Assembly: GCA_045863475.1 (NCBI GenBank)
Contig: BTUR01000004.1
Location: forward strand, 2,628-66,627
Direction of reading: 5' to 3'
Origin: Candidatus Campbellbacteria bacterium
Lineage (GTDB): Bacteria; Patescibacteriota; Minisyncoccia; Phycocordibacterales; EsbW-18
Length of the DNA: 64,000 bases
The translations under genes were made by a program, and so were the position numbers. Below are positions 4,376 through 54,987 of the stretch, one piece after another; positions within the stretch are counted from its first letter, which is position 1; the number at the start of each line of letters is the position of its first letter. Below the pieces are notes generated by a model, which had not been told where the DNA came from, searched no databases, and saw nothing but the letters and a program-made list of their open reading frames with translations.

Positions 4376-4840
4376 ATGTCAGTCAGTGTTTCTGATATCA
4401 AACAATTGCGCGACCAAACCGGTCTGCCGATGAACCAGTGCAAAGAGGCGCTCGAAGTGTCCGGCGGTGACGTTGAAAAGGCGCTTGAATTTTTGAAAGA
4501 AAAAGGCGCAGTGATTGCATCAAAAAAAGCGGGACGAAGCCTTGGATCAGGTTCAATTCAGGCGTACGTACACGGCCACGGTGGTGTTGCTGCACTCGCG
4601 GAGTTGCTCTGCGAGACGGACTTCGTTGCGCGTAATCCGGAATTCCAGACAGTCGCAAAAGATATCGCAATGCAGATTGCCGCGACCGACGATGCGGTAC
4701 TCGAACAGGGTGCAGATGAAATTCTCAAACAGCCTTTTTTCAAAAATCCTGAAGTGACGATTGCACAGCTTATCGAGAGCGCGGTGCAGAAATTCGGCGA
4801 GCGCACGGAGCTCGGCCGCTTCATTAAGTACACTATCTAA
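4376..4840 (+). CDS. tsf: elongation factor Ts, short form (154 aa)
   Basis: IKQLRDQTGLPMNQCKEALEVSGGDVEKALEFLKEKG (UBA-like N-terminus) and LAELLCETDFVARNPEFQ (EF-Ts core). Immediately downstream of rpsB, the usual rpsB-tsf order. Confidence 0.85.
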   Translation: MSVSVSDIKQLRDQTGLPMNQCKEALEVSGGDVEKALEFLKEKGAVIASKKAGRSLGSGSIQAYVHGHGGVAALAELLCETDFVARNPEFQTVAKDIAMQIAATDDAVLEQGADEILKQPFFKNPEVTIAQLIESAVQKFGERTELGRFIKYTI

Positions 4841-4881
4841 CACGCTGGCGCGGTCCCGCGTCACGTGTCATCATATTTATT

Positions 4882-5361
4882 ATGACCGTACTCGCGAGCA
4901 TGTTCGGTGGCTCCATACTCCTTATCTCCGCTTTTTTTGCATTCAAGGATTGGGAACGGGGACGCGGCAGGGAAACAGCGTTCTCCGCGCTTTTAAACCG
5001 GTATTCACCATCGGTAGAGCGCTTGTATCGCCGTGTTGTCGCCAAAATTGTTTTCTGGTTGATGGTAGCCGTCGCCACCGTCCGTGCGCTGTTTCGTTTT
5101 GGGTTTGTGCGTGCACTGACGCTTACCCGGGCTACGGTTGCGGTGCTCGGTGCGCACATGATTCATGTCGCACGTGGGGAGCATTTGATTGCAGAAGGAA
5201 AGATACCTTCCACATATTTTAAACTTCTCCATCGACACAAAGAGCGAATTAACGGTACGGATATCCCGAAAGGTATTATCCATCAGGGTATACCCCAGCG
5301 GGTGAAAGTGACGGTTGCCGAGGAAACTAGTAGCGCGACCGCTCCTGCGCAGGTAGAATAG
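4882..5361 (+). CDS. hypothetical membrane protein
   Basis: ORF with several hydrophobic helices and no known motif. Confidence 0.45.
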   Translation: MTVLASMFGGSILLISAFFAFKDWERGRGRETAFSALLNRYSPSVERLYRRVVAKIVFWLMVAVATVRALFRFGFVRALTLTRATVAVLGAHMIHVARGEHLIAEGKIPSTYFKLLHRHKERINGTDIPKGIIHQGIPQRVKVTVAEETSSATAPAQVE

Positions 5362-5370
5362 TCCTCGTAC

Positions 5371-5446
5371 GCCGCCTTAGCTCAGTCGGTAGAGCAACAC
5401 TTTTGTAAAGTGAAGGTCCCCAGTTCGAATCTGGGAGGCGGCTCCA
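5371..5446 (+). tRNA. tRNA-Thr (anticodon UGU), CCA encoded
   Basis: Manual cloverleaf. Acceptor gccgcct/aggcggc; D-arm gctc-agtcggta-gagc; anticodon stem cact/agtg with loop tTTGTaa; T-arm cccag-ttcgaat-ctggg; discriminator t; then cca. Confidence 0.85.
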
Positions 5447-5618
5447 AACAAGCCTGTCGGGAGAGAAGTGAGGTGCCGTGGCACGTCACTTCTTTTGTTA
5501 GTGAAGGTCCCCAGTTCGAATCTGGGAGGCGGCTCCAAACAAGCCTGTCGGGAGAGAAGTGAGGTGCCGTGGCACGTCACTTCTTTTGTTAGTGAAGGTC
5601 CCCAGTTCGAATCTGGGA
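5447..5618 (+). repeat. Two extra perfect tandem copies of an 85-bp unit: a 47-bp spacer containing a terminator-like hairpin, then the 38-nt 3' part of tRNA-Thr (anticodon-stem 3' strand to CCA)
   Basis: Unit aacaagcctgtcgggagagaagtgaggtgccgtggcacgtcacttcttttgtt + agtgaaggtccccagttcgaatctgggaggcggctcca is repeated at 5447-5531 and 5532-5618. The last copy ends ctcac. The spacer hairpin is agaagtgaggtgcc/ggcacgtcacttct followed by ttttgtt. Confidence 0.85.
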
Positions 5619-5683
5619 GGCGGCTCACAGAGATTAATTGAACAGCGCGTCCTTAGCTTGCCGGGACGCGTTTTTCTTCCCCT

Positions 5684-6442
5684 GTGCCAAAGACGGCACG
5701 GACAGGTATAATGATTTTTATGCAAGAACGAAAAGAATATCACCACCCGATGACCCAAGCGATACGCGATGCCGTGCGTATCTTCTCTAGTATGGGATTC
5801 TCCGTCGCCTCCGGTCCCGAGATTGAGGATGAGTGGCACAACTTTACCGCACTTAACGTTCCCAAAGATCACCCCGCGCGTGACATGCAGGACACGTTCT
5901 GGCTTCCCGACGGACGCGTATTGCGCACGCACACGTCTCCGGTGCAGGTTCGGTGGATGCAGACGCACGAGCCGCCAATTCGCGTTATTGTTCCGGGCAA
6001 AGTATTTCGCAACGAGGCAACCGACATGACGCACGAGGCGCAGTTCTACCAACTTGAAGGCCTTGTTATTTCAGAGGACACGACGCTCGCGCATCTCAAG
6101 GGAGTGCTCGAAAAGTTTTTTAAAGAATTTTTCCACGGAGAAGTTGAAGTTCGGCTTCGTCCGAGTTTCTTCGGATTCACCGAACCCTCTGTTGAGGTGG
6201 ACATGCGTCTTTCCGGCGAAGGGGCACCAGCGAAACTGCGCGACCGATGGATTGAGGTTATGGGCGCCGGCATGGTGCATCCGCACGTGCTCAATAATGC
6301 CGGTATTGATCCAAAGCGTTTCCAGGGATTTGCATTTGGTGGTGGTATTGAGCGCCTCTGCATGCTCCGCTGGGGGATTGATGATGTCCGCGTGTTCCAC
6401 GGAGGTGATATCAGGTTTCCGATGCAATTTCCCGCTGAATAA
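5684..6442 (+). CDS. pheS: phenylalanine--tRNA ligase alpha subunit, short form lacking the N-terminal extension
   Basis: Class II motifs: FTALNVPKDHPARDMQDTFWL, HTSPVQVRWM, FRNEATDMTHEAQFYQLEGLVI, FRPSFFGFTEPSVEVDM. The true start may be an internal Met (5711, 5720 or 5747). Confidence 0.85.
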   Translation: MPKTARTGIMIFMQERKEYHHPMTQAIRDAVRIFSSMGFSVASGPEIEDEWHNFTALNVPKDHPARDMQDTFWLPDGRVLRTHTSPVQVRWMQTHEPPIRVIVPGKVFRNEATDMTHEAQFYQLEGLVISEDTTLAHLKGVLEKFFKEFFHGEVEVRLRPSFFGFTEPSVEVDMRLSGEGAPAKLRDRWIEVMGAGMVHPHVLNNAGIDPKRFQGFAFGGGIERLCMLRWGIDDVRVFHGGDIRFPMQFPAE

Positions 6443-6444
6443 CT

Positions 6445-6729
6445 ATGAATCCCGATAGTGTAAAAAAGTTTTACTATGTGTATGTGCTCAAGAGTCGGAC
6501 AAATAATCAGTGGTATGTTGGCTATACATCTGATCTTCGAAAGAGATACATCGAGCATAGCCGCGGTAAGAGCACATACACAAAAAAACGCGGTCCGTAC
6601 GAATTAATATATTACGAAGCATACAGAAACGAGCAAGATGCAGTGTCACGAGAACAGCAACTTAAATCTGGGCAAGGGAAAATGTATCTACGCAGGAGAA
6701 TTAAAAGATTTTTAACACTATCGGGATGA
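6445..6729 (+). CDS. stand-alone GIY-YIG nuclease family protein (94 aa)
   Basis: YYVYVLKS...WYVGYTSDLRKRYIEH matches the GIY-YIG (URI domain) signature. Located between pheS and pheT with 4-bp overlaps on both sides. Confidence 0.7.
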   Translation: MNPDSVKKFYYVYVLKSRTNNQWYVGYTSDLRKRYIEHSRGKSTYTKKRGPYELIYYEAYRNEQDAVSREQQLKSGQGKMYLRRRIKRFLTLSG

Positions 6730-9149
6730 AAGTATCTCGCGCATGGCTCCAAACTTTTTTTGAAACACCACTTCCCGACGCGGGTGAACTTGAACGTGTC
6801 CTCACCTTCGGTGCATTTGAAGTTGAAGGTGTCGAGGAGAATGGTGAGGACAGTATTCTGGACGTGAAAGTGTTGCCAAATCGCGCGCATGACTGTTTGT
6901 GTCACCGCGGTATTGCAAAAGAACTCTCGGTACTGCTTGGGCTATCGCTGTCGCGTGATCCGCTTACGGAGGAGGTGCCGGCATTTGATTCTTTCGGTGA
7001 TGTCTCGGTTTCCGTTGAAAACACCTCCGCGTGTCCTGCGTACCATGCCGCACGCGTAAGCGGTGTGCGCGTCGGCCCGTCACCTGTGTGGCTTGTTAAG
7101 CGTCTTGCAAGCATCGGTCAGCGCTCCATCAATAACGTTGTGGATGCGACGAATCTCGTTATGAATGAACTGGGACAGCCACTGCACGCATTTGATGCCT
7201 CAAAGCTTGGTGGTGCAGACGGGAAGAAAATGATTGCGGTGCGCATGGCGCGCCCGGGCGAGTCGATAACCATCCTCGGAGGTGACAGCTACACGCTTGC
7301 GGATACGGTACAGCTTATTACCGATGCGGCGACGGACACACCTATTGCAATGGCGGGTATCAAGGGAGGAAGTGTTGCTGAGGTTGATGAGAATACAACC
7401 GACATTATTCTCGAGTCCGCGAAATTCCATCCGACGCTGACACGAAAAGCATCACAACTCCTGAAGTTGCGAACCGATGCGTCGTATCGTTTTGAAAATG
7501 AGATTCCGGATGAATTGCCGGCGTACGCGCTTTCCGAACTCATCACGCTCATTAAAGACATCGCCGGAGGCGAGCTTTCCGGATATGCGGGCGTTGTGCG
7601 CCCACGCGCCTCACTGCCGTACAAAATCGGCATCTCATCGCGTGAGGCCAACAAACTTCTCGGTACAGACCTTTCAGACAGTGACATGGAAAAGATTCTT
7701 ACTCGGTACGGTTTTGCATATGAAATGATAGAGGACCCGAGAGTGCGGATTGTGGGGCGCGCGAAGAGTGTTATTGGCGCTCCGTACAAACGCCTGGCGC
7801 GCATCCGCTTCGACACTCCCAAGAGTTTCAACTGCTCATCACTGTCGGCATGGTGTGCGATTGAGGCAGGGTGTTCATTTGGCGTTGCACGTATCGCGAT
7901 TGACCAGTTCGCGTATCTTGATCCTGTTGATGAAAAAAAATTGGCACCCGGTGACTTGGTGTTTACAAATACCGGAGAGGTTCGCACGATGGGGGGTGAG
8001 ATGTATTCAAATGTGCTGGACACGATGGTTCAGGATGAGGCAATTCGCACAAAGACATTGGAATTTTTGCCGGGGACAGATATCGGCCACGGTGTTGATC
8101 ACGTCGGCATCTACACAGGCGACGGAAAGGTTATACATACATCTTCAAAAACAGGGACGGTTGCCGAAGAGGTGCTCTCAGAGAGTCCGACGTTTGCACA
8201 CGAGAAATGGTACCGACGCATCGTCACAGAGGACGAGGTGCGGTTTTCAGTAACAGTTCCGTTTTCACGTCTTGATATGCGCTTGCCCGCCGACCTGATT
8301 GAAGAAATCGGCCGCGCGTACGGGTATGAGAATATTGCCGCACGTGAATTGCCCGCTCCTACCACATCGCCTGAACAGAATAATCTCTGGTGTGCCTCTG
8401 AGACGGTTCGCCGTGCGCTTGCTGGTCTCGGATTTATTGAGGTGTACTCGTATACATTGCGGGAAAACGGGGCGGTGAAACTCGTTAATGCACTTGCGGA
8501 AGATAAAGCATTCATTCGCAGCTCGCTTGTTCCCGGTGTCGTCGAGGCTCTTGAAAAAGGAGAATACCACGCGCCATTTTTGGGACTCACTGAGGTGTTG
8601 GTGTTTGAAATCGGCAATGTGTTTGATGAAAAGAATGAGCACCTGCACGTGTGTATCGGTGCCCGGCCGCTTGCGAGTGCAAAACGCAGTGAGAAGGCAA
8701 ATGCAAAACTCCTGGAAGCGAAAGAGACACTGGAGAAGGCGCTTGGTGTTCACCTCGATGAACAGGTGGGTGAAGAGACGCTTGCGTTCAATCTCAGTTC
8801 CGCCATTGAAGGCAAAACATATGCGTGTCCGGAGTTTTCTCCCGTTGTAGAGTCAGCAGCGTATATTCCACCGTCCTCGTACCCGTTTATGTTGCGCGAC
8901 ATCGCCGTGTGGGTTCCTGACGGGGAGGGAAGCGGGGATGACATTGTCTCTGTGGTGCGAGAGCATGCGGGAAATTTGTTTGCTCGCGCTGATGTGTTTG
9001 ATACGTTTTCAAAGGAAGGAAAGACCTCGTATGCGTACCATCTTGTATTTCAATCGCATGAAAAGACACTCACGGATGCGGAGGTAAACGAAATCATGCA
9101 AAAGGTGACGGATAGCCTTAACGGACGCACGGGTTGGCAAGTTCGTTAA
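6726..9149 (+). CDS. pheT: phenylalanine--tRNA ligase beta subunit carrying a roughly 170-aa NlpC/P60-like (papain-fold) insertion within or after the B5 domain
   Basis: The N-terminus MKVSRAWLQTFFETPLPDAGELERVLTFGAFEVEGVE, B3/4 and B5 regions, VTVPFSRLDMRLPADLIEEIGRAYGYENI, and the C-terminal FDX-ACB-like end are all PheT. The insertion (FNCSSLSAWC...PGDLVF...HVGIYTGDGKVIHTSS) has Cys and His motifs in NlpC/P60 order. Confidence 0.9.
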   Translation: MKVSRAWLQTFFETPLPDAGELERVLTFGAFEVEGVEENGEDSILDVKVLPNRAHDCLCHRGIAKELSVLLGLSLSRDPLTEEVPAFDSFGDVSVSVENTSACPAYHAARVSGVRVGPSPVWLVKRLASIGQRSINNVVDATNLVMNELGQPLHAFDASKLGGADGKKMIAVRMARPGESITILGGDSYTLADTVQLITDAATDTPIAMAGIKGGSVAEVDENTTDIILESAKFHPTLTRKASQLLKLRTDASYRFENEIPDELPAYALSELITLIKDIAGGELSGYAGVVRPRASLPYKIGISSREANKLLGTDLSDSDMEKILTRYGFAYEMIEDPRVRIVGRAKSVIGAPYKRLARIRFDTPKSFNCSSLSAWCAIEAGCSFGVARIAIDQFAYLDPVDEKKLAPGDLVFTNTGEVRTMGGEMYSNVLDTMVQDEAIRTKTLEFLPGTDIGHGVDHVGIYTGDGKVIHTSSKTGTVAEEVLSESPTFAHEKWYRRIVTEDEVRFSVTVPFSRLDMRLPADLIEEIGRAYGYENIAARELPAPTTSPEQNNLWCASETVRRALAGLGFIEVYSYTLRENGAVKLVNALAEDKAFIRSSLVPGVVEALEKGEYHAPFLGLTEVLVFEIGNVFDEKNEHLHVCIGARPLASAKRSEKANAKLLEAKETLEKALGVHLDEQVGEETLAFNLSSAIEGKTYACPEFSPVVESAAYIPPSSYPFMLRDIAVWVPDGEGSGDDIVSVVREHAGNLFARADVFDTFSKEGKTSYAYHLVFQSHEKTLTDAEVNEIMQKVTDSLNGRTGWQVR

Positions 9150-16329: not shown

Positions 16330-19300
16330 ATGAAAACAAACTTCGCACACATGCTTTCAACGACAACCGCAAAGGCGCTCTCCATCGGCGTAACGCTTTT
16401 TATCGTTACACTGTCGGTGGTTGCACCTCAGACGATTGCATCGCTTGATGCACAAATCGCAGCTGACACGGACAGTGAAAAGTCCGAGAAGGCGGAGCCC
16501 CAGGAACAGGAACCTCAGGAGCAGGAGCCCACAACGACGGGAGGCGGTTCTTCAACGAAGCCGAACCCGAAAGACGAAAGTCCGGAGGTGTCGTGTGAGA
16601 CACCGACGACTGAGGAAGGATTCCGCGCCATCCGCGACAACATGGGTCGCTGGGATTGGGACCTTGAGAACGGCAGCGTGACAATCCGCAACAACGACGA
16701 GAACTGCTCATGGCCCGTTGGTTTGAAATCATTCAAAATCTACAGTGAACAGAATCCGCAAAACGGCCAAACTCGTTTCGACGAGGATTGGGCGACGCTT
16801 GCTCCCGGTGAGACACGTACGTTTCAGGTAGATGTTCCGTCATGCCGCTACCAGCTCGACGCGCTCATTTTCCCGGCGATGCCGTACACGTCTGCAAAAC
16901 TCATTCGCGGTGAAATTAATTTTGATCTCCCGGTATGTGAGCGTCAGCTGGAGCCCCCGGCGTGTCCGTTTACACCCGAAGATGGCACTGTTGTCGTTTT
17001 CTCTCAGGACAGCGGCACCTACCTCGCATCCACTCCCGCATCGCGTCACTCTATCGGTCCGATGCATGTAACGCTTCCTCCCGGCACGTACACCGTCAAG
17101 ACGTTTTCATGGGACGGCTATGTCGGCCGCGAAAACGTGATGCAGATCCACGAGCAGTGGAACGTCATGCTCCGCGACGGCGCGGGTACAACGACAGGAC
17201 TTGCCGGTCCGACGACCGATCTCGCGGATCAAGTTCGCCAGACATCTCGTATTGATACATTCATCAACGCATTCACGGCGACCGCGACGACAACGCGCAT
17301 TTTCGCGCTGCACGCATTCCCGAACGACACCTCAAGCGCAAACAGCGTCGTACCTGTCTGTGCGGCTTTCAAGCGCACAGCACTGCCGCCCGCTGATCCT
17401 GCAACGCTTACGGTTATAAAGACCGTTATCAACGACGACGGTGGCACGCGACAAGTATCAGACTTTAATCTCTACGTTGGCACACAGAATGTAACGAGTG
17501 GTGCTACAAACGAATTTGCTCCCGGCACGTACACCGTTCGCGAAGACAATCTTCCGGGTTACACAGCATCAAATTGGATGGGGGATTGTTCTGCAACGGG
17601 ACAGGTAACGCTCGCGGCTGGACAGCACAAAATCTGCCGCATCACCAACAACGACAACCCGCCCGTTCCTGCAACCATTACGCTCATCAAGACCGTTCTC
17701 AACGACGATGGTGGTACGGCAGAAGTTTCTGACTTCAATCTCTACATCGGCAACAATGCGGTGCAGAGTGGTGTTCCGATGCAAATCGGCCCCGGCACAT
17801 ACACTGCACGTGAAGACCAGCTCCCTGGCTACACGGCATCAGATTGGATGGGGGACTGTTCGGCAAACGGTTCAGTAACGGTTGCAGCCGGAGAGCACAA
17901 GATTTGCCGCATCACCAACAATGATATTCCGACTGAGCCGCAGCACGCGACACTCACCGTTATCAAGACTGTTCTCAACGATGACGGTGGTACGGCAGAA
18001 GTTTCTGATTTTAATCTGTACGTCGGCACGATGCAGGTTACTTCCGGTGCCACGAACGCGTTTAACCCGGGTACGTATACCGTTCGCGAAGACCAGCTTC
18101 CCGGCTACACGGCGTCAGACTGGATGGGCGACTGTTCAGCTGACGGAGAAGTGACGCTTGTTCTCGGAGAACACAAGATTTGTCGCATCACCAACAATGA
18201 CAATCCGTTTAACCCGGATGACGCAACACTCACGGTCATCAAGACCGTTATCAATGACGACGGTGGCACGGCGCAGGTGGAGGATTTTCACCTCTACGTC
18301 GACGAACTTCAGGTTATAAGCGGTGAAGAAAACCGTTTCGCTCCCGGTACCTATACTGTGCACGAAGCGAACCTCCCGGGGTACGTCGCATCCGCTTGGA
18401 TGGGTGACTGTTCGGCAGACGGACAAGTTACGCTTGCATCAGGACAAAATAAAATCTGCCGCATCACCAACAACGACACACCCATCACTAACGGTGAGAC
18501 AACGATTACGCTTATTAAGACGGTCATCAACGACGATGGCGGCACTGCACAGGTATCTGACTTCAATCTCTACGTCGGGAACACGCAGGTGACGAGCGGT
18601 AACGCACTGTCAGTTACACCTGGCACGTACGCGGTTCGCGAGGATAACCTTTCAGGCTACACCGCATCAGGTTGGACGGGCGACTGTTCATCTGACGGTT
18701 CGGTAACACTTGCATCAGGCGATCACAAAATCTGCCGCATCACCAACAACGACAACGCCGGTGGAGGCGGAGGCGGTGGCGGAGGCGGTGGTGGCGGCGG
18801 TAGCCGACGCCCGCGCGTGACACTCTTCTCCAACCCGGAGATCTTGGGTGCATCCATCTCGCTCTCTCAAGTTCCGTACACCGGTCTTGGCACGAGCATC
18901 CTGCAGATTATCCTCTTCCTTATCGGTCTCGTTGCAATCGCAGGCGGGGTTACCTACATGCTCCTTCGCCGCCGATTCCCGGCAGCGGGAATTGAAATCC
19001 CGATGGAGCACGCGCCGATTCTTAAAGCACAAACACACACAACACCGGCACCGCGTGTTGCATACGACGACCTTGACGTTGCCGTTGCAGACGAAGGACA
19101 AGACGAGCTTGCGGTGTACGGTGAATATGAACACGCATTTGTTGTGGAAGAGACTCCTCGAACATCTATGCAGGTTCCGACGAATCTCCCGGTTGCGCCG
19201 GTAGCGGTTGCCAGTGTGGTACGTCAGTCGCCGGCAGCTCGCATGGTGCAAGAACACCGTGAAGAGAAACGACAGGTAGCGGTATCACTTGGTAAACTCC

Positions 19301-19890
19301 AGAATGCGGCACGCGCATCACAGTCCATTATTTCAGAAGACGGTCTGAAGCTTGTCATTGCATCTGCTGAAGGCAACGAACAGAAAGCGCTTGAACGCCT
19401 CACGGCAGTTATTGAAGTGGCCAAGACGCGCTACCCGCGCGAAGACGGCTGGCTCGTGCTTGATGCAACACGCATCCGCGAATCACTCTTTATCTCGATT
19501 CTCTCAACAGTCCCGCTTTTCATTGAATGGATTGTTCGTGGAGAAGACCGCAACATCTTCAGCTTCCTGCGCATGCTTAAGTCACAGAACCAGCCGGTTG
19601 CAGACTTCATCCGTAAGGTCGTTGCAGAGCTCGACAATGCGCACCGCGCACGCCTCGAAGGGGCAAGCGACGTGACCGTTGACCCGCATGTTGCCGAGGT
19701 AACGTACCATCTCTCAAATCGTGATTTGGAGATGATCGTCTCGGAGCTGCTCTCAGGTGTTGACGAACGATATGACTCCGCCTTTACGTCCGTTCGCCTC
19801 GCTTTGGTTCGCGTGCTCGATATCGTCAAAGCAAACCACATGACGCGTATTGGGGGCACCTACGCCTTCCAGGAGGGCTCGGAGGCCTAA
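16330..19890 (+). CDS. large cell-surface protein (1186 aa): signal peptide, five tandem roughly 93-aa prealbumin/Cna-B-like repeats, a Gly14 linker, a sorting-signal-like segment (VPYTG, TM, RRRF), then a roughly 320-aa C-terminal domain
   Basis: N-terminal hydrophobic signal. Repeats 'TLTVIKTV(I/L)NDDGGTAxVSDFNLYVG...PGTYTVREDxLPGYTASxWMGDCSxDGxVTLxxGxHKICRITNND' occur five times. GGGGGGGGGGGGGG. Then SLSQVPYTGLGTSILQIILFLIGLVAIAGGVTYMLLRRRF. Adjacent to the sortase gene. Confidence 0.75.
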   Translation: MKTNFAHMLSTTTAKALSIGVTLFIVTLSVVAPQTIASLDAQIAADTDSEKSEKAEPQEQEPQEQEPTTTGGGSSTKPNPKDESPEVSCETPTTEEGFRAIRDNMGRWDWDLENGSVTIRNNDENCSWPVGLKSFKIYSEQNPQNGQTRFDEDWATLAPGETRTFQVDVPSCRYQLDALIFPAMPYTSAKLIRGEINFDLPVCERQLEPPACPFTPEDGTVVVFSQDSGTYLASTPASRHSIGPMHVTLPPGTYTVKTFSWDGYVGRENVMQIHEQWNVMLRDGAGTTTGLAGPTTDLADQVRQTSRIDTFINAFTATATTTRIFALHAFPNDTSSANSVVPVCAAFKRTALPPADPATLTVIKTVINDDGGTRQVSDFNLYVGTQNVTSGATNEFAPGTYTVREDNLPGYTASNWMGDCSATGQVTLAAGQHKICRITNNDNPPVPATITLIKTVLNDDGGTAEVSDFNLYIGNNAVQSGVPMQIGPGTYTAREDQLPGYTASDWMGDCSANGSVTVAAGEHKICRITNNDIPTEPQHATLTVIKTVLNDDGGTAEVSDFNLYVGTMQVTSGATNAFNPGTYTVREDQLPGYTASDWMGDCSADGEVTLVLGEHKICRITNNDNPFNPDDATLTVIKTVINDDGGTAQVEDFHLYVDELQVISGEENRFAPGTYTVHEANLPGYVASAWMGDCSADGQVTLASGQNKICRITNNDTPITNGETTITLIKTVINDDGGTAQVSDFNLYVGNTQVTSGNALSVTPGTYAVREDNLSGYTASGWTGDCSSDGSVTLASGDHKICRITNNDNAGGGGGGGGGGGGGGSRRPRVTLFSNPEILGASISLSQVPYTGLGTSILQIILFLIGLVAIAGGVTYMLLRRRFPAAGIEIPMEHAPILKAQTHTTPAPRVAYDDLDVAVADEGQDELAVYGEYEHAFVVEETPRTSMQVPTNLPVAPVAVASVVRQSPAARMVQEHREEKRQVAVSLGKLQNAARASQSIISEDGLKLVIASAEGNEQKALERLTAVIEVAKTRYPREDGWLVLDATRIRESLFISILSTVPLFIEWIVRGEDRNIFSFLRMLKSQNQPVADFIRKVVAELDNAHRARLEGASDVTVDPHVAEVTYHLSNRDLEMIVSELLSGVDERYDSAFTSVRLALVRVLDIVKANHMTRIGGTYAFQEGSEA
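17390..18790 (+). repeat. Five tandem roughly 280-bp coding repeats (the prealbumin-like repeats of the surface protein)
   Basis: Repeats are evident in both protein and nucleotide sequence (recurring acgcttacggt.ataaagaccgtt.tcaacgacgatggtgg..). Confidence 0.7.
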
Positions 19891-22056: not shown

Positions 22057-22079
22057 GGATACAGTAGTTTTTACTTTTT

Positions 22080-22650
22080 ACGTAAAAAATTACAAAGGAA
22101 AGGGGCGCCGACTCGCTTGGAGTAACGGCGCCCGGGTGGGTTACCCGAAGGTCCCGTGGTTAATCGTCGCAGGGGGCAATATGCCTGGTTTCGCGCAGAG
22201 CGCTCAAATCGCAGGGACACTGGCCGCTCGACGAAACCTCCGTACCGAGGGATAGAGCCCGACCGATCTATAGACCGATCTCTGGGTGCTACTTGGTGCA
22301 TCGCTGTTTGTGGGCGGGGGGTAGTGGAAGTTACCCTCGCGCCGTCTTTTCTCTGCCCCGTAGGGCGGGTTACCGAGTACCGCTTCTCGTGCAGACTCTC
22401 ATCTGCAGCGATTCCCTCCAAGGGTCCGGTTTCTCGGTGCGGGAGATGGCATCTCCCACTCTTCTTTTCTCTCTTCCTTCTGTCGTGGGGGTTGGCTGCC
22501 ACGCTTTTTAGGGCGGGGGCCGTGCGAGCATAGCGCTCCTCCGTGGGGATACGAAGATGGGGAGTAGAAGAACAGCGACAAAGAACAATCCCCTGAGAAA
22601 CCCCGTTTTTCAACGGCGTTTTGCAGGTGCTGACGATACTACTCTCCGTT
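22080..22650. ncRNA. GC-rich, roughly 570-nt non-coding region with extensive hairpin potential; probable structured RNA of unassigned class; strand undetermined
   Basis: Both strands are tiled by overlapping Arg/Pro/Gly-rich junk ORFs. GC content is clearly higher than in flanking genes. Hairpins include gggcgccg...cggcgccc. No T-arm (GGTTCGA.TCC) is present, so it is neither tRNA-like nor tmRNA. RNase P RNA is already located elsewhere in the window. Confidence 0.35.
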
Positions 22651-27304: not shown

Positions 27305-28600
27305 ATGAGCGAGTTGTTTCGGTCAATCATCGATGCAGTCGGCCCGGTGTGGCGCTTCATAGTCATCGTTTTTACCTACGCGCCTGTCTGGATGCCGGTA
27401 CTCCTGGTATTTGCCGGCTGGAAATCGTGGATGCGGTACCGCCGAACGCTCTTTTTGTCAAAAAAAGAACCGGCGCTTCTGGAAGTGCGTGTTCCGAAAG
27501 AGGTGAACAAATCACCGTTTGCGATGGAGATGGTGCTCAATGCACTCTATGCTCCTGGCGGAGAGGGAACTTGGAAAGAAAAATATTGGCAAGGCGGCGT
27601 CCGTCCGTGGTTTTCACTTGAGCTTGTATCTATTGAGGGGCAGGTGCGTTTTTTCATCTGGACATGGAAGGATAGCGTAAAGTCCATTCAAAACAGCATC
27701 TACGCGCAGTACCCGACGACCGAGGTGTTTGAGGTGCCGGACTATACACTCGCGTTTCTTTACGACCCGGATAAGGCGGATATATCGGCGGCAGAATTTA
27801 TTCTCAGCAAACCCGACCCGTATCCGATTAAAACGTACGTTGACTACAAACTTGATAAAGACCCAAAGGAGGAGTTTAAGGTAGATCCGATTGCGCCAGC
27901 GCTTGAGTATCTCGGTGGCCTCGGGAAAGGTGAGCAAGTGTGGATACAGATTTTGGTGCGTGCGCACAAGAAGGAAGATTCAAAGGGCGGGTCGTTGTTC
28001 GGCATCATCAAGTCGGTGGAAGACCTCTTTGACATCAACAAGAAAGTGAAGGAACACTTTGAAAAGACCGACAAGTGGAAGGATGATGTGAAAACTGAGA
28101 TCGACAGCATCATTAAGAAGCGCAAGATACAAAGCGGTAAGGATGAGGAGTTTGGCATGGTGCAGCTCACAACGCAGGAAAAAGACACAATAGAAGCACT
28201 TGAGCGCAGTGTTACAAAACTGCCGTTTGACGTCGGTATTCGCACGGTCTACCTCGCTGAGAAAGATTATTTCAATAAAGGAAACAAAGGAGCACTTAAC
28301 GGTGTATTTGCGCAGTACAACACCCAGCACCTCAACGGTTTCAAGAAAGTGAACGGTACGAGCTTTGACTACGACATTCAGGATCCGTTTGGCTGGCGTG
28401 TTGCGCGTATGAAGCGCGACATGTTTGAAGCGTACCGTTTGCGCAGTTACTTCCACCCGCCGTTTAAGAAAAAACACTTTGTGCTCAACTCGGAAGAATT
28501 GGCGACGATTTACCACTTCCCGGGAGGATCCGTGGCAACGCCAACCTTCGGACGCATCGAGTCGCAAAAGGCAGAACCTCCGATGAATCTGCCGGTCTAG
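27305..28600 (+). CDS. hypothetical membrane-anchored protein (two N-terminal TM helices, large soluble domain)
   Basis: Long ORF with a hydrophobic N-terminus. No known motif recognised. Confidence 0.5.
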   Translation: MSELFRSIIDAVGPVWRFIVIVFTYAPVWMPVLLVFAGWKSWMRYRRTLFLSKKEPALLEVRVPKEVNKSPFAMEMVLNALYAPGGEGTWKEKYWQGGVRPWFSLELVSIEGQVRFFIWTWKDSVKSIQNSIYAQYPTTEVFEVPDYTLAFLYDPDKADISAAEFILSKPDPYPIKTYVDYKLDKDPKEEFKVDPIAPALEYLGGLGKGEQVWIQILVRAHKKEDSKGGSLFGIIKSVEDLFDINKKVKEHFEKTDKWKDDVKTEIDSIIKKRKIQSGKDEEFGMVQLTTQEKDTIEALERSVTKLPFDVGIRTVYLAEKDYFNKGNKGALNGVFAQYNTQHLNGFKKVNGTSFDYDIQDPFGWRVARMKRDMFEAYRLRSYFHPPFKKKHFVLNSEELATIYHFPGGSVATPTFGRIESQKAEPPMNLPV

Positions 28601-37292: not shown

Positions 37293-37378
37293 GACAAAAG
37301 AAAAAAACCGGGCCTCGCGCGCAATGCGCGGGGCCCGGTTCGGTTGTGGCTGCGTTTCAGGCAGCCTAGGTTACGGAC
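37293..37378. repeat. Duplicated 3'-end module, copy A: last codons plus stop of the 37371 gene, a ggctgc...gcagcc hairpin, and a bidirectional terminator hairpin ccgggcctcgcgcgcaatgcgcggggcccgg
   Basis: About 90 bp near-identical to 38727-38812; the single difference is ttacgGactt versus ttacgAactt. Confidence 0.7.
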
Positions 37379-38627
37379 TTGGAATCAACGTTGAGAGGTT
37401 CGGACACGAAAACGACATCGGCCGCTTAGTGCTGGGGCTCGAGGAACTCCACGAGAACCCGTTGAGCGTCTGTGTGGTGAAGTCCGGGTTGGTGAACTCG
37501 AATGCACCACGGTCCTTCGGGTACGTTTGTTCCCAGGTTCCCATCTCTGCCGTGACGAGCATGAATTGCGTGTTGCTCCGCCGGCGTTCAGAAACCACCT
37601 CGAACCTTCCCGGACCGACGATTCTGGCTGAGTAGGTTGTTCCTTCGATGAAGAAGGAGCACGGGTACTTCTCAGTAAACCTTGATGCCGGTCTCGCTAC
37701 CGAATCTGAGTCGGTCTGTGCGACACCTGTGATGTAGAAGGGAATCCACGCGTTGTCGCGACCGGTGTCGCGGAATTGTCCGAGGATTCTCATGCCGGAT
37801 CCTGGGGCGACCGGTTGTTCGAACCAATCACCACCAGTCCCGCCGAGATCGCCGTTGTTCTTCCAGTGTCCTTTGCCGCTGACGCGATCAAGGAAAAAGG
37901 AAGATGACTCCATTTCGCCGCCGTTCCGATGAAACACCGTGAACGACAGGACACTTTGCGTGTCCGTGTCGATACGGACGTCCAGGCAGGTCGCCCGAAG
38001 ACCGGGTTTATAGCCCTTTACTCCGGGAGGCTTGCTCCAGCACCACTGCATCTTGGTGGGAATGGTGCCTGCTGTCGCAGATGCCGCCGGCCCCGACCTC
38101 TGCTCCACCGCCCTCTTCTTGGCTTCCAACAATCCCCACTGGTCGATACCCGAAAGGGCACCAACGCAGATTAGGATTAGTCCAACAACGGAGAGTGGTT
38201 TGATTGCTCGGAAGGTTCCGAAAATCAAGGTCATGAAGGTGCTCACCACCACGGTAGCAAAACCGATTCGCATGATGGTTGTCCACGTTGGTCCGGCTGT
38301 TGGTATGAGACTTGTGAGTCTAAACAGGATACCAGCCAGGACAGTGATGCCGATGAGACCAATCCACTTGAGTCTGGCATCTTGGATGCCGGACACCTTG
38401 AGAATGGCCGCACCAACCAGAACCAACCCGAACAGAACTCCTACAATTGTGATGGTCCAGAAGAGATCCCAACTCCAGTCGCCGCCAGCAGCTACGAAAA
38501 GCAAACCAAGGCTAAGCGCAAGGAGTGTGGTAGTGATCACCATGGTGACAACAACCATCATTGCCACGCGAGGCGAGTACCGTGCAGCCTTTTCCAAGAG
38601 GTTGGACAGACGGTCAAAAATGTTCAT
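37371..38627 (-). CDS. membrane protein (five N-terminal TM helices, large C-terminal extracellular domain)
   Basis: The C-terminal domain (ARIVGPGRFEV...TAEMGTWEQTYPKDRGAFEFTNPDF...PSP*) is paralogous to the C-terminus of the 38801 gene. Confidence 0.65.
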   Translation of the reverse strand: MNIFDRLSNLLEKAARYSPRVAMMVVVTMVITTTLLALSLGLLFVAAGGDWSWDLFWTITIVGVLFGLVLVGAAILKVSGIQDARLKWIGLIGITVLAGILFRLTSLIPTAGPTWTTIMRIGFATVVVSTFMTLIFGTFRAIKPLSVVGLILICVGALSGIDQWGLLEAKKRAVEQRSGPAASATAGTIPTKMQWCWSKPPGVKGYKPGLRATCLDVRIDTDTQSVLSFTVFHRNGGEMESSSFFLDRVSGKGHWKNNGDLGGTGGDWFEQPVAPGSGMRILGQFRDTGRDNAWIPFYITGVAQTDSDSVARPASRFTEKYPCSFFIEGTTYSARIVGPGRFEVVSERRRSNTQFMLVTAEMGTWEQTYPKDRGAFEFTNPDFTTQTLNGFSWSSSSPSTKRPMSFSCPNLSTLIPSP

Positions 38628-38726: not shown

Positions 38727-38812
38727 AAAGAAAAAAACCGGGCCTCGCGCGCAATGCGCGGGGCCCGGTTCGGTTGTGGCTGCGTTTCAGGCAGCCTAGG
38801 TTACGAACTTGG
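38727..38812. repeat. Duplicated 3'-end module, copy B (after the 38801 gene)
   Basis: See copy A; it includes the stop codon and the last codons (..PSS*). Confidence 0.7.
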
Positions 38813-39631
38813 ATGAGGAACGGCTCCCTCGCAGGTAAGTGTGATGATGCGCTCACCCCGGTACGGATACCGGTCGCTCTTGGACACACCCTTGAAGACG
38901 CCGTCGACGTAGTCGGCGCTGCTCCACTCGAAGGTTCCGTAGTCAGATTCGAATTCCTCAGACCAGGTACCTTTGTTGTAGAGGTTCCAGTAGAGGTCAG
39001 CGGTTACATGTCTGCCAGGGCGAATCTTGGCATGTCCCGGTCCGACGATGATTGCATCATGTCGGAACGCACACTCATTTCTTGGTGTGCCGAAGCAGTA
39101 AGAGCAACGTATGCTATCTTCCAGTGGTTTTCTGGATGACCCCGATTCACTGTGTGACACCGAGGCCGAGTTTGACTTCTGGCTGTCCTTGAGTTTCTTG
39201 AGTTTCTCGAGAAGCTCAAGGGTCATGGGAACGGTCTTACAGCCCGTGTCTGGGTCAAACTCATGCTCCGACAGCGCCTTTCCGACGACCTTGCCGTTAC
39301 AGATGACGGCTCTCGCGTTCGGCTGACCACTTTTCGGGTCGAAGTTGTCCTGCGGCAACCGCTCCTCGAACTGACGTGACAGCCACTTCATGGAAGCAGC
39401 AGTCGGTGACCATGCAGAGAGGAACAGCCAGGCGACGACGGCGGAGAGGCCGACAGTCAGCATCTTGTACAGCTTGTGCTCGCGCCCGGTCCACAGCATC
39501 GTGATTGCCATGGCGATGAGGCCGATGGCGACCCATGTGCTTCCTTCAGGCAGAGCTGAACGAACGGCTGCCAAGAGGAACAGTACGATGGCGACGGTTC
39601 CGAAGATCCGCCACTGCGTAGCTCTGGTCAT
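38801..39631 (-). CDS. membrane-anchored protein paralogous to 37371-38627 in its C-terminal domain
   Basis: Start at MTRATQWRIF... (ATG 39631), overlapping the upstream stop (ATGA). C-terminal IIVGPGHAKIRPG...GTWSEEFESDYGTFEWSSADY...PSS*. Confidence 0.6.
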   Translation of the reverse strand: MTRATQWRIFGTVAIVLFLLAAVRSALPEGSTWVAIGLIAMAITMLWTGREHKLYKMLTVGLSAVVAWLFLSAWSPTAASMKWLSRQFEERLPQDNFDPKSGQPNARAVICNGKVVGKALSEHEFDPDTGCKTVPMTLELLEKLKKLKDSQKSNSASVSHSESGSSRKPLEDSIRCSYCFGTPRNECAFRHDAIIVGPGHAKIRPGRHVTADLYWNLYNKGTWSEEFESDYGTFEWSSADYVDGVFKGVSKSDRYPYRGERIITLTCEGAVPHPSS

Positions 39632-40389
39632 TTCGTTTCTCCTGGAACAAGCCGGAAGATGTTGAAGGACGCGGTGAGGAGCGCTGATGTCGCGAGGGCG
39701 ACAATGAGTTTCCCTGCGCCCGGCGACACCACGAACCACCACCAGAACACGATGGACAGAACGAGCAGGGCGAGCATCATGATTGCGTAGGCCTTAGCGG
39801 ACCACGTGAGGATCTTGCCTGCCTTGTCAGCCGCTTCTTTGGCCGTCGCTTTCGCAGCCTCCAAAGCGGTATTCTTCTCGCGAACCTCTCGAAGCAGAAG
39901 CGACACCATCATGTCTGCCGCCTCCGGACTGCGAGTCGAGCTTCTGAGAAATCCGATGATGAGCGACTCCGGCTCAAATCCCGCCGGATATGCCTCGCGC
40001 TGAACCGGTTCCTCGATGACCTCCGTGACGCCTCCCTTGCGCTGTCGCGTCGTCTTCTTGATGAAGGTGAGCATGCGCGGGGGAAGGTAGCCGTCTTTCG
40101 CCTGCGTGAACATCTCAGCAATCGCTTGCTCGACGGCATCACGTTCGTCAGGCGTCTTGAGGCGGTTGATTGCATCAACGAGAATCTTGCGTCTCTTGAA
40201 GGGGAGAAACTTGTCGTTGTTCACGACCGTGTTGAAGTCCAGTTTCTCCTTCTTCTGATCGTCGGGCTTCTTGCTGTCCGTTGTGGTTGCGACCGTCTTC
40301 ACCGCCTCCTTCCCGAGTTTACCGAGAAGCGCCGCGATGGAATCGCGAATTGCGTGGGCGATCAAGTCGTCCCAGATGTTTTTGAACAT
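39628..40389 (-). CDS. hypothetical protein with a C-terminal TM hairpin (about 254 aa)
   Basis: RBS GGAGAA precedes ATG (MFKNIWDD...). Lys/Glu-rich and coiled-coil-like, with two C-terminal TM helices. Confidence 0.55.
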   Translation of the reverse strand: MFKNIWDDLIAHAIRDSIAALLGKLGKEAVKTVATTTDSKKPDDQKKEKLDFNTVVNNDKFLPFKRRKILVDAINRLKTPDERDAVEQAIAEMFTQAKDGYLPPRMLTFIKKTTRQRKGGVTEVIEEPVQREAYPAGFEPESLIIGFLRSSTRSPEAADMMVSLLLREVREKNTALEAAKATAKEAADKAGKILTWSAKAYAIMMLALLVLSIVFWWWFVVSPGAGKLIVALATSALLTASFNIFRLVPGETK

Positions 40390-40778
40390 CTTCGTTCTCC
40401 TTTGGAGAGTGAGGGGTAAAGACGATTGTATGTACAAGCTCTACGAGAGAGCGTTATTTTCCAAGTTCGTTGTTAGAGAGCTTCTGTTGAGAATATAGCA
40501 CAAACAGGCCAAAAAGTCAAGTTATGAAAAGACAAATCACGGCTCTACAGAGCCGTGGTTTAAGCAAAACAAAATCACCGAACGCGGTGCGCTCGGTTCT
40601 TTGTTTTGTGGGCGGGAGAGTCGGCCAAGCGCTCGCTTGTTGCCGTCGCTCCTCGCTCCGCTCAGCCCTGCTCTTGCGACCCCGTCTGCCACCGGGGTGC
40701 CCGCAATTCGCCTTCGAGTCCTCTCTCGCTGACAAACAAAATCGCCCAAGGACTCGCCCTGGACTCATTTGTTTGTTG

Positions 40779-40962: not shown

Positions 40963-41139
40963 GTAACCAGAGCTATTCTAGCAACAACAAAAAGGTTTTT
41001 CTAGGTGGGCCAGGTGGGAATCGGTCACGAGTATTTTTCTGCTGAAAAACCTCGCGACCCGTGAAAAGGTATTTGTATACCTTTTCACCGCGCCGTCGCG
41101 CTCCGGCTTTCGATTCCCACAACAAAAGTTTGTTTTTTG

Positions 41140-41221: not shown

Positions 41222-41367
41222 AAAAAGGGAAGTGCGAACAGGAATCGGTCACGAGTTTCTAATTCGCTGCGCTCACAAGAACTCTTGACCTCGCCTCGTC
41301 GCCGCCGAAGGCGGCACACTGCGGCCTTCGATTCCCGACGAAAGCAAAGCAGTTTGCTTTCTTTCGT

Positions 41368-48717: not shown

Positions 48718-48893
48718 CAACGACCGGTGAAGACAGCCGGGGGCTGTCGGAGTCGGACGTCGGCGGATGCGAGAAGGGAATCGAACGGCGGAGTTCCGGT
48801 TTACCGGAACGAGCCGCGTCCAGCAGTACTTAGGAGCGAAGCGACTTAGTAACTGCGGGACGATTCCCTCAGGAATTCTGTTACACCAGAACC

Positions 48894-54265: not shown

Positions 54266-54336
54266 CAAAATCTACGTTAACTAATTGAATGGGGGTTCAA
54301 TTCGGGGTGGGGGCACTGGAGTGATATACTGTTTTC

Positions 54337-54745: not shown

Positions 54746-54987
54746 TGCGTTGTATCGCGGCGGACTCGAAGGCCGCAGGAACGAGGCGGGGTCGAGAACA
54801 CTTAGGATTTTGGAGCCCATAGGGCGAACAAAATACTTAGTGATTCGTGACCGAGTCCGCCCCTCGGCACATAACAAGAAAAAGACAGCATGTGCTGTTT
54901 TTTTCTTGTTACTGCATGGTTGTTTTTGGTTTCTGTCTTGGTATCGTCCCTAAGGGACGCGTGCGTCCCTTAGGGACGACCGGTGTG

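Follow-up and report, generated by a model that had tools for sequence, protein, structure and literature searches.

Introduction

Integrases that use tRNA genes as att sites leave behind an intact tRNA gene and, downstream of it, 3′ fragments of that gene in the same orientation, which constitutes the Islander signature (PMC4383910). The edge of the anticodon loop is a known subsite of the att crossover and is used by about half of the mapped islands (PMC4383910; PMC1635311). Arrays of another kind, TIGR-Tas, are composed of 36-nt units with two alternating repeats of 8–12 nt and variable spacers of 9 nt, and they adjoin a Tas gene with a Nop domain (PMC12045711). In the locus described here, a tRNA-Thr gene is followed by two further copies of its own 3′ part, which are separated by a repeated spacer. 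The locus lies in the window (the whole stretch of DNA analysed, 64 kb), a core-genome stretch of a Patescibacteria (CPR) bacterium with genes for a peptide chain release factor with PCRF/RF-1 domains, rpsB, a short tsf, tRNA-Thr, a short pheS, pheT and gyrB. As best relatives, MAGs of the Paceibacteria type were found, with GyrB identity of up to about 75%. Ten tRNA genes are found in the window; seven of them have no encoded CCA, most being of the form discriminator-CA-N, and those which encode CCA are the genes for Thr, Gly and Phe.

The gene next to the array is pheS (5720–6442, + strand; Pfam tRNA-synt_2d, E = 8e-90), as a preliminary description of this DNA had stated. A promoter-like site, GTGCCA-17-TATAAT, is located at 5684–5712 on the + strand, just 5′ of pheS, and pheS is probably leaderless. 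Between pheS and pheT there is a free-standing gene for a GIY-YIG domain of 94 aa (6445–6729), which overlaps the start of pheT by 4 nt and which may be a homing-endonuclease-like insertion; a copy with 56% identity occurs elsewhere in a relative, locus L022, on the opposite strand. PheT (6726–9149) contains an extra segment of about 170 aa (residues about 334–506), which gives a weak NlpC/P60 match (E = 2.5e-7) and is missing from many relatives, in which the tblastn matches of PheT are split into 1–333 and 507–807. Farther along the window, a surface protein of 1186 aa (ORF 16330–19890) has a 276-bp tandem repeat at 17410–18755 (4.9 copies, 70% matches) encoding SpaA_2/prealbumin-like domains, and a sortase gene (15610–16281) adjoins it.

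Structure of the tRNA-Thr Array

The tRNA-Thr(UGU) gene occupies 5371–5446 on the + strand (ARAGORN; Rfam tRNA, 68.3 bits) with its CCA encoded at 5444–5446, and its last 36–38 nt, as read from the sequence, are referred to as X1 (5409–5444/5446). The first spacer copy, 53 nt long, follows directly at 5447–5499 on the same strand; it begins with AACAAGCC, contains hairpin arms at 5464–5477 and 5480–5493, and ends in the T-rich tail CTTTTGTT (5492–5499). Next comes X2 (5500–5537, +), a perfect copy of tRNA positions 39–76 (100% over 38 nt, E = 6e-17), which comprises the 3′ strand of the anticodon stem, the variable loop, the T arm, the 3′ strand of the acceptor, the discriminator and CCA. The second spacer copy (5538–5590, +; hairpin arms 5555–5568 and 5571–5584) is identical to 5447–5499, and it is followed by X3 (5591–5626, +), which the repeat search gave as a perfect copy of tRNA positions 39–74 and which continues into ACAG with no CCA. 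The layout is accordingly X-Y-X-Y-X, in which X denotes tRNA positions 39–74 (the 3′ part, 36 nt) and Y, 55 nt long, denotes CA plus the 53-nt spacer of hairpin and T-run. Tandem Repeats Finder reported the array at 5400–5626 with a period of 91, 2.5 copies and 98% matches, and the repeat search gave 100% identity both between 5409–5499 and 5500–5590 and among the 36-nt copies at 5409–5444, 5500–5535 and 5591–5626. Exactly two occurrences of the 53-nt spacer are present in the window, against an expectation of 0 by chance.

These results alter the dimensions given in the preliminary description while leaving its main features in place. It had put the spacer at 47 bp, the unit at 85 bp and the end of the array at 5618; the repeat search yields a spacer of 53 nt, a unit of 91 bp (Tandem Repeats Finder and repeat search) and an end at 5626. 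Its statement that the last 38 nt of the tRNA recur twice is right for X2, which has 38 nt including CCA, but not for X3, which has 36 nt and then ACAG. The perfect identity of the units, on the other hand, was borne out (5409–5499 equals 5500–5590 at 100%), and so was the hairpin with a 14-bp stem and T-run in the spacer: the arms are 14 nt long and 93% complementary, the loop is 2 nt, and TTTTGTT follows. The folding energy of this hairpin is −22.7 kcal/mol (z = −2.85).

Past the repeat, X3 reads TCAC where the proximal copies read TCCA, and the trailer and the hairpin differ too. The second terminator-like hairpin, GAACAGCGCGTCC ... GGACGCGTTTTTC plus a T-run (5640–5681, +; 13-nt arms, 85% complementary), is unrelated in sequence to the hairpin of the spacer. 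Neither of the two hairpins was flagged by a simple terminator scan; that at 5640–5681 was probably missed since its loop exceeds the loop limit of the scan, and for the spacer hairpin the label “terminator” is therefore by inference only. Up to three hairpin/T-run signals would thus lie between tRNA-Thr and the promoter of pheS. In an Rfam search of 4500–6500 only the tRNA scored, everything else being below the gathering threshold, and neither a riboswitch nor a T-box was found upstream of pheS.

Assembly Evidence for the Repeat

Perfect tandem repeats are error-prone in short-read assemblies, so the array might be an artefact in which a repeat was collapsed, expanded or misassembled from a single tRNA gene, and for an analogous array, described below, two assemblies differ, with 3.6 and 2.6 copies. 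An exact-protein look-up of PheS from the ATG at 5720 returned no record, and the flanking genes were used instead. Two Logan contigs of run DRR491768 carry the genes which flank the array, with identical proteins; one contig ends at window position 5438 and the other begins at 5597. Logan assemblies are built on a k = 31 graph, and in the array the last 31-mer with unique left context is 5408–5438 and the first with unique right context is 5597–5627. The contigs therefore stop exactly at the k = 31 branch points of X, that is, X must have two left and two right neighbours, and at least X-Y-X is present in an independent assembly. Consequently the repeat is not an invention of the assembly, which makes the artefact very improbable. 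The k = 31 contigs do not give the copy number; the assembly has two units, but there may be one, or more than two.

Origin of the Array

The best explanation, in which moderate confidence is placed, is that the array is a DNA-level recombination scar, namely a displaced 3′ fragment of tRNA-Thr with att-like geometry which was recently amplified by unequal crossover. In the first of two proposed steps, a tRNA 3′ part of 38 nt (with CCA) and a 53-nt trailer with hairpin and T-run would have arrived at the 3′ edge of the anticodon loop; the gene would thereby have been regenerated, and its original 3′ part (X3, with no CCA and with its own hairpin at 5640–5681) pushed downstream to give X-Y-X. 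This may have taken place by site-specific recombination of the att type or by microhomology-mediated deletion between two tandem tRNA-Thr paralogues, for which the T-run of the trailer, CACTTCTTTTGT, matching the U-rich anticodon arm CACTTTTGT, could have served as the guide. In the second step, the 91-bp unit would have been doubled when the 36-nt X repeats underwent a single unequal crossover or when replication slipped between them, as the perfect identity of the units and the X-Y-X-Y-X layout lead us to infer. The copy number should therefore be unstable. The extra X copies would need no function of their own.

The order of the steps follows from the arrangement itself, since tandem duplication gives L-S-S-R and never a third X with a new flank; X-Y-X therefore came first. 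X3 is a candidate for the original gene end, now displaced, because seven of the ten tRNA genes in the window are without CCA, because the functional tRNA-Thr genes of the related loci L010 and L022 end in GGCTCACAG as X3 does, and because tRNA-Phe shows the same pattern: for tRNA-Thr and tRNA-Phe alike, CCA is found on the proximal gene and a copy without CCA is displaced downstream. The first base of the X fragment is tRNA position 39, which adjoins the anticodon loop on its 3′ side. The preliminary description had regarded the duplicated 3′ segments as the footprint of integrase att sites, and as far as geometry goes this holds, whereas the integrase, the island and a donor bearing the spacer were not found. 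Its suggestion that such arrays arise by repeated integration and excision is implausible for a circle of 91 bp, one unequal crossover or slippage between the X repeats being simpler. A very recent tandem duplication, which it had also proposed, is supported by the perfect unit identity for the amplification step. The analogous perfect array in L079 and L093, which differs between assemblies (3.6 and 2.6 copies, respectively), is in keeping with such an amplification.

The tRNA-Thr locus was compared with those of relatives, as had been recommended at the outset. A 27-mer from the T arm and acceptor strand of the tRNA, when matched exactly, found 56 Patescibacteria loci, in which the order release factor-rpsB-tsf-tRNA-Thr ... 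pheS-pheT-gyrB is widely kept and the distance from tRNA-Thr to pheS varies from 66 bp to 5.7 kb. Degenerate copies of tRNA-Thr in these relatives were sought by blastn-short, and partial copies adjoin the gene in 8 of the 56 loci (L010, L020, L022, L042, L047, L049, L054 and L056). In L010 (5352–5678, oriented) a 5′ fragment of tRNA-Thr lies upstream and a 3′ fragment downstream; L054 (3692–3822) has a 5′ fragment and a hairpin upstream of the gene; L020 (1–200) has a 75-nt array of 2.7 near-full-length degenerate copies; and L022, L042, L047 and L056 have degenerate 3′ halves 20–45 nt downstream, and in those of L022 and L042 the T loop is interrupted by a hairpin, CCCCGTAG ... CTACTGGGG, which is conserved. 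The tRNA-Thr locus is thus a recurrent site of partial duplication. The comparison with orthologous loci was fruitful in that partial tRNA-Thr copies recur and the interval between the tRNA and pheS varies, both of which support the reading as a scar, but the spacer of the array was found in none of the relatives with partial tRNA-Thr copies.

Likeness to the tRNA also reaches 5′ of the perfect block. The last 13 nt of the spacer, CACTTCTTTTGTT, resemble CACTTTTGTAA of the tRNA (5′ strand of the anticodon stem plus loop), and a weak collinear similarity exists between the spacer and the 5′ half of the tRNA (p about 0.02–0.05). It might accordingly be supposed that the array is a remnant of tandem whole-gene duplicates of tRNA-Thr, the 5′ halves having decayed into spacer while the 3′ parts were kept identical by gene conversion. 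Spacer and tRNA 5′ half can be aligned collinearly as GCC(T) ... GTCGGGAGAG ... CACTT.TTTGT (local alignment, p about 0.02; the 5′ part alone, p about 0.045), and the array of L020, with its tRNA-length period of 75 nt and 2.7 copies, has 5′ parts that are degenerate and 3′ parts that are conserved. In statistical terms, however, the similarity is weak, and heavy indel decay of the 5′ halves beside no mismatch in three 36-nt 3′ parts is not neutral decay; moreover, the junction CCAAACAA derives from neither native flank, and the identity of the two spacers means that a recent duplication was in any event the last step, if not more. Decay of whole-gene duplicates is therefore considered unlikely, and the recombination scar is preferred. 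Against the scar, in turn, are the lack of an integrase in the 64 kb, a spacer with no relative in the collections searched, a best relative (about 75% GyrB identity) too distant to show an empty or single-copy site, a unit count taken from the assembly, and the frequency of structured tRNA 3′-end copies behind other tRNAs, described below.

Mobile Genes in the Window and Search for a Donor

Domains of integrases, TnpB and reverse transcriptases (RT) were not detected by Pfam in any ORF of at least 150 aa in the 64 kb, which agrees with the earlier statement that no integrase lies nearby. No Pfam match even at E ≤ 1 was obtained for the ORFs 27305–28600, 37371–38627, 38801–39742, 39628–40437 and 22071–22613, nor for an ORF of 159 aa at 4882–5361. 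The sole genes of mobile type in the window are an IS110-like transposase gene (12512–13612) and the GIY-YIG gene between pheS and pheT. The former, which is the only recombinase gene in the 64 kb and is 7 kb from the array, encodes an IS110/IS116-family transposase-like protein (Pfam PF02371, E = 5e-5). Direct repeats flank this ORF (12178–12355 and 13989–14165; 12409–12463 and 13884–13938), with repeated segments of 55–86 nt that are 85–100% identical and contain hairpin-forming sequence, and they may be the ends of the element or its non-coding RNAs. A link of this gene or its flanking repeats to the tRNA elements described in the next section was rejected, the model matches being at chance level (E 0.2–0.5).

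The preliminary description had proposed a search for elements which carry the spacer. A 22–24-mer of the spacer was absent from IMG/VR viral contigs and JGI metagenome contigs, bases 5440–5600 gave no blastn match in INPHARED phages or PLSDB plasmids, and a 30-mer of X had no match in IMG/VR viral contigs. The proposed search thus found no such element in viral, metagenome, phage or plasmid collections, and since the spacer has no relative in the collections searched, no donor element is known.

tRNA-Copying Elements behind Other tRNA Genes

When the tRNA genes of the window were subjected to self-blast, those for Phe, Leu(UAA), Leu(UAG), Cys, Trp and Arg were found to have a copy of their own 3′ end 27–170 nt downstream. 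In five of these six, the copy belongs to a conserved, structured element (about 110–140 nt), of which it makes up the 3′ strand and which is here called the shadow element. It lies after tRNA-Phe at 54748–54876 (+), after tRNA-Cys at 41223–41349 (−), after tRNA-Leu-UAA at 40999–41131 (−), after tRNA-Trp at 48763–48885 (+) and after tRNA-Leu-UAG at 40599–40735 (−). Behind tRNA-Arg(CCU), a degenerate copy (21/24) of its T arm and acceptor 3′ strand lies 27 nt downstream, at 54293–54316, with no structured core. The tRNAs which directly precede another tRNA (Lys and Gly) have no shadow element.

Five parts make up the shadow element, in this order: the T loop and T stem in inverted copy, with TCGAA at the end; (A/G)GCCGSAG with a variable hairpin; CGAGGCGGGGTCGMGAG with a second variable hairpin; CTCGTGAC; and the tRNA from C56 to the discriminator in direct copy. 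Its core is TCGAARGCCGSAG ... GGGGTCGMGAG ... CTCGTGACC, and the element forms a three-way junction on folding, the lowest z being −7.6. A degenerate pattern of the element found 71 metagenome loci and no viral contig. About 50 of the pattern matches sit 27–85 nt downstream of tRNAs of about 17 isotypes, and 18–20 nt of the copy match that very tRNA. In roughly one third of them the T-stem copy is preceded by an inverted copy of the acceptor 3′ strand and by a conserved hairpin with a CUGC loop; these elements are then tRNA-like overall, their acceptor and T stems being those of the tRNA beside them. A covariance model of the element, R1, matched 5 copies in the window, 75 in the metagenome loci (L059–L129) and 1 in the 56 tRNA-Thr loci. 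In an alignment of 67 distinct sequences, which was itself fitted to the model, 94% of the cells are paired and 23 of the 27 pairs have changed on both sides; none of 500 shuffles was as high and no slid control came near. A G.U pair is conserved in 61 of the 67 sequences and points to structure on the tRNA-sense strand. The element is absent from Rfam 15, and a literature search gave no description of tRNA-adjacent tRNA-like elements in Patescibacteria.

Shadow elements also occur in tandem, as in L116 (2941–3264), L126 (3986–4271), L074 (4228–4531), L068 and L079. A perfect 70-nt array has 3.6 copies in L079 (7265–7513) and 2.6 in L093 (1240–1418), the same locus from a different sample. In L074, two different core subtypes stand behind one tRNA-Arg. 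One possible reading is that the shadow element is a structured RNA, for example a processing substrate or decoy of the RNase P/Z type; another is that it is a miniature mobile element which lacks an integrase and mimics its target through its folded stem.

These elements raise the question of whether the Y-X units of the tRNA-Thr array are themselves functional tRNA-like modules, that is, core-less kin of the shadow elements which are co-transcribed with the tRNA and act at the RNA level, possibly as RNase P or RNase Z substrates that define tRNA 3′ ends or as decoys made of acceptor/T minihelices. The fold of each unit (−38 kcal/mol, z = −3.1) combines a short acceptor-like AGCC/GGCU pairing with a long hairpin and with a T arm that is intact and carries CCA, although any half-tRNA copy would fold alike and the acceptor-like pairing is just 3–4 bp. 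Five other tRNAs of the window and about 50 metagenome tRNA loci precede a covarying element which copies the tRNA, its conserved G.U pair suggests a sense-strand structure, it occurs in tandem pairs and arrays, and tRNAs that directly precede another tRNA are without it, all of which favours such modules; the covariance model, however, does not match the Thr array, and its single match in the 56 related loci is not at tRNA-Thr. Furthermore, two identical units offer no covariation, and the strong hairpin and T-run which precede every extra X would limit transcription. A function of the units at the RNA level is thus doubtful, though it is the chief alternative, and the recombination scar remains the preferred account of the Thr array.

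Most tRNA transcription units, both here and in related genomes, have a copy of the 3′ part of their own tRNA at their end, and in many of them this copy is part of the conserved, covarying structure. The pervasiveness of structured tRNA 3′-end copies at other tRNAs suggests that the process may be systematic and possibly selected, rather than accidental. It is conceivable, though we put it forward tentatively, that the Thr array is the simplest product of a lineage-wide, Paceibacteria-type system which installs copies of tRNA 3′ parts directly downstream of the tRNA. If so, this system would copy either the acceptor 3′ strand and the T stem or everything from the anticodon arm onward, would often wrap the copy around a structured core and would sometimes build tandem arrays of variable copy number, and its products would be either tRNA-templated, integrase-less mini mobile elements or tRNA-like RNAs which work with the tRNA they shadow. 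On its own, the Thr array is a small recombination scar, probably an unstable one, in a streamlined genome, and it would serve chiefly to mark strains and to warn of pitfalls in assembly and in the annotation of tRNAs. The shadow-element family is of more interest than the array itself: if it acts as RNA, it would be a new tRNA-linked RNA family in bacteria without much of the usual RNA-processing toolkit, and if it acts as DNA, an element of a new kind, which targets tRNA genes and has no integrase.

Comparison with Known Systems

With CRISPR and TIGR arrays the Thr array shares a regular periodicity of repeat and spacer, but the likeness ends there. Its spacers are identical and not unique, unlike those of CRISPR, and no cas domains are found in the 64 kb, which upholds the earlier view that the periodicity is not that of a CRISPR. 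From TIGR-Tas it differs by its identical units of 91 nt and by the absence of any Nop-domain match in the window. A CRISPR or TIGR array was thus ruled out by the identical spacers, the unit size and the lack of cas and Tas genes, and the array is neither CRISPR-like nor a guide-RNA system.

The islands of tyrosine integrases share more with the array. In both there is an intact tDNA with 3′ fragments downstream in the same orientation (here 5500–5537 and 5591–5626, + strand), a block of identity from the edge of the anticodon loop to the 3′ end, and a regenerated end that is unlike the displaced end; tandem arrays with several fragments are also known among such islands (PMC4383910). However, only 53 bp lie between the copies here, with neither integrase nor cargo, and the “island” would measure 91 bp as against a minimum of 2 kb; in addition, the units are identical and no donor bearing an attP was found.

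Duplication by unequal crossover or slippage would account for other traits of the array, namely perfect units arranged head to tail, a partial terminal copy and flanking repeats of 36 nt. The array differs from a product of this process in that it requires a pre-existing X-Y-X, which slippage alone does not explain.

Finally, the shadow elements resemble the Thr units in being located downstream of a tRNA in the same orientation, in having a hairpin followed by a direct copy of the tRNA 3′ part, and in their sometimes tandem occurrence. Membership of the Thr array in this family was rejected, as a model search with the filters off gives five copies in the window and none in 5371–5626. Shadow elements possess the core with the three-way junction and their tRNA copy starts in the T loop, at C56, whereas the Thr units have no such core, begin their copy after the anticodon loop and keep a normal T arm.
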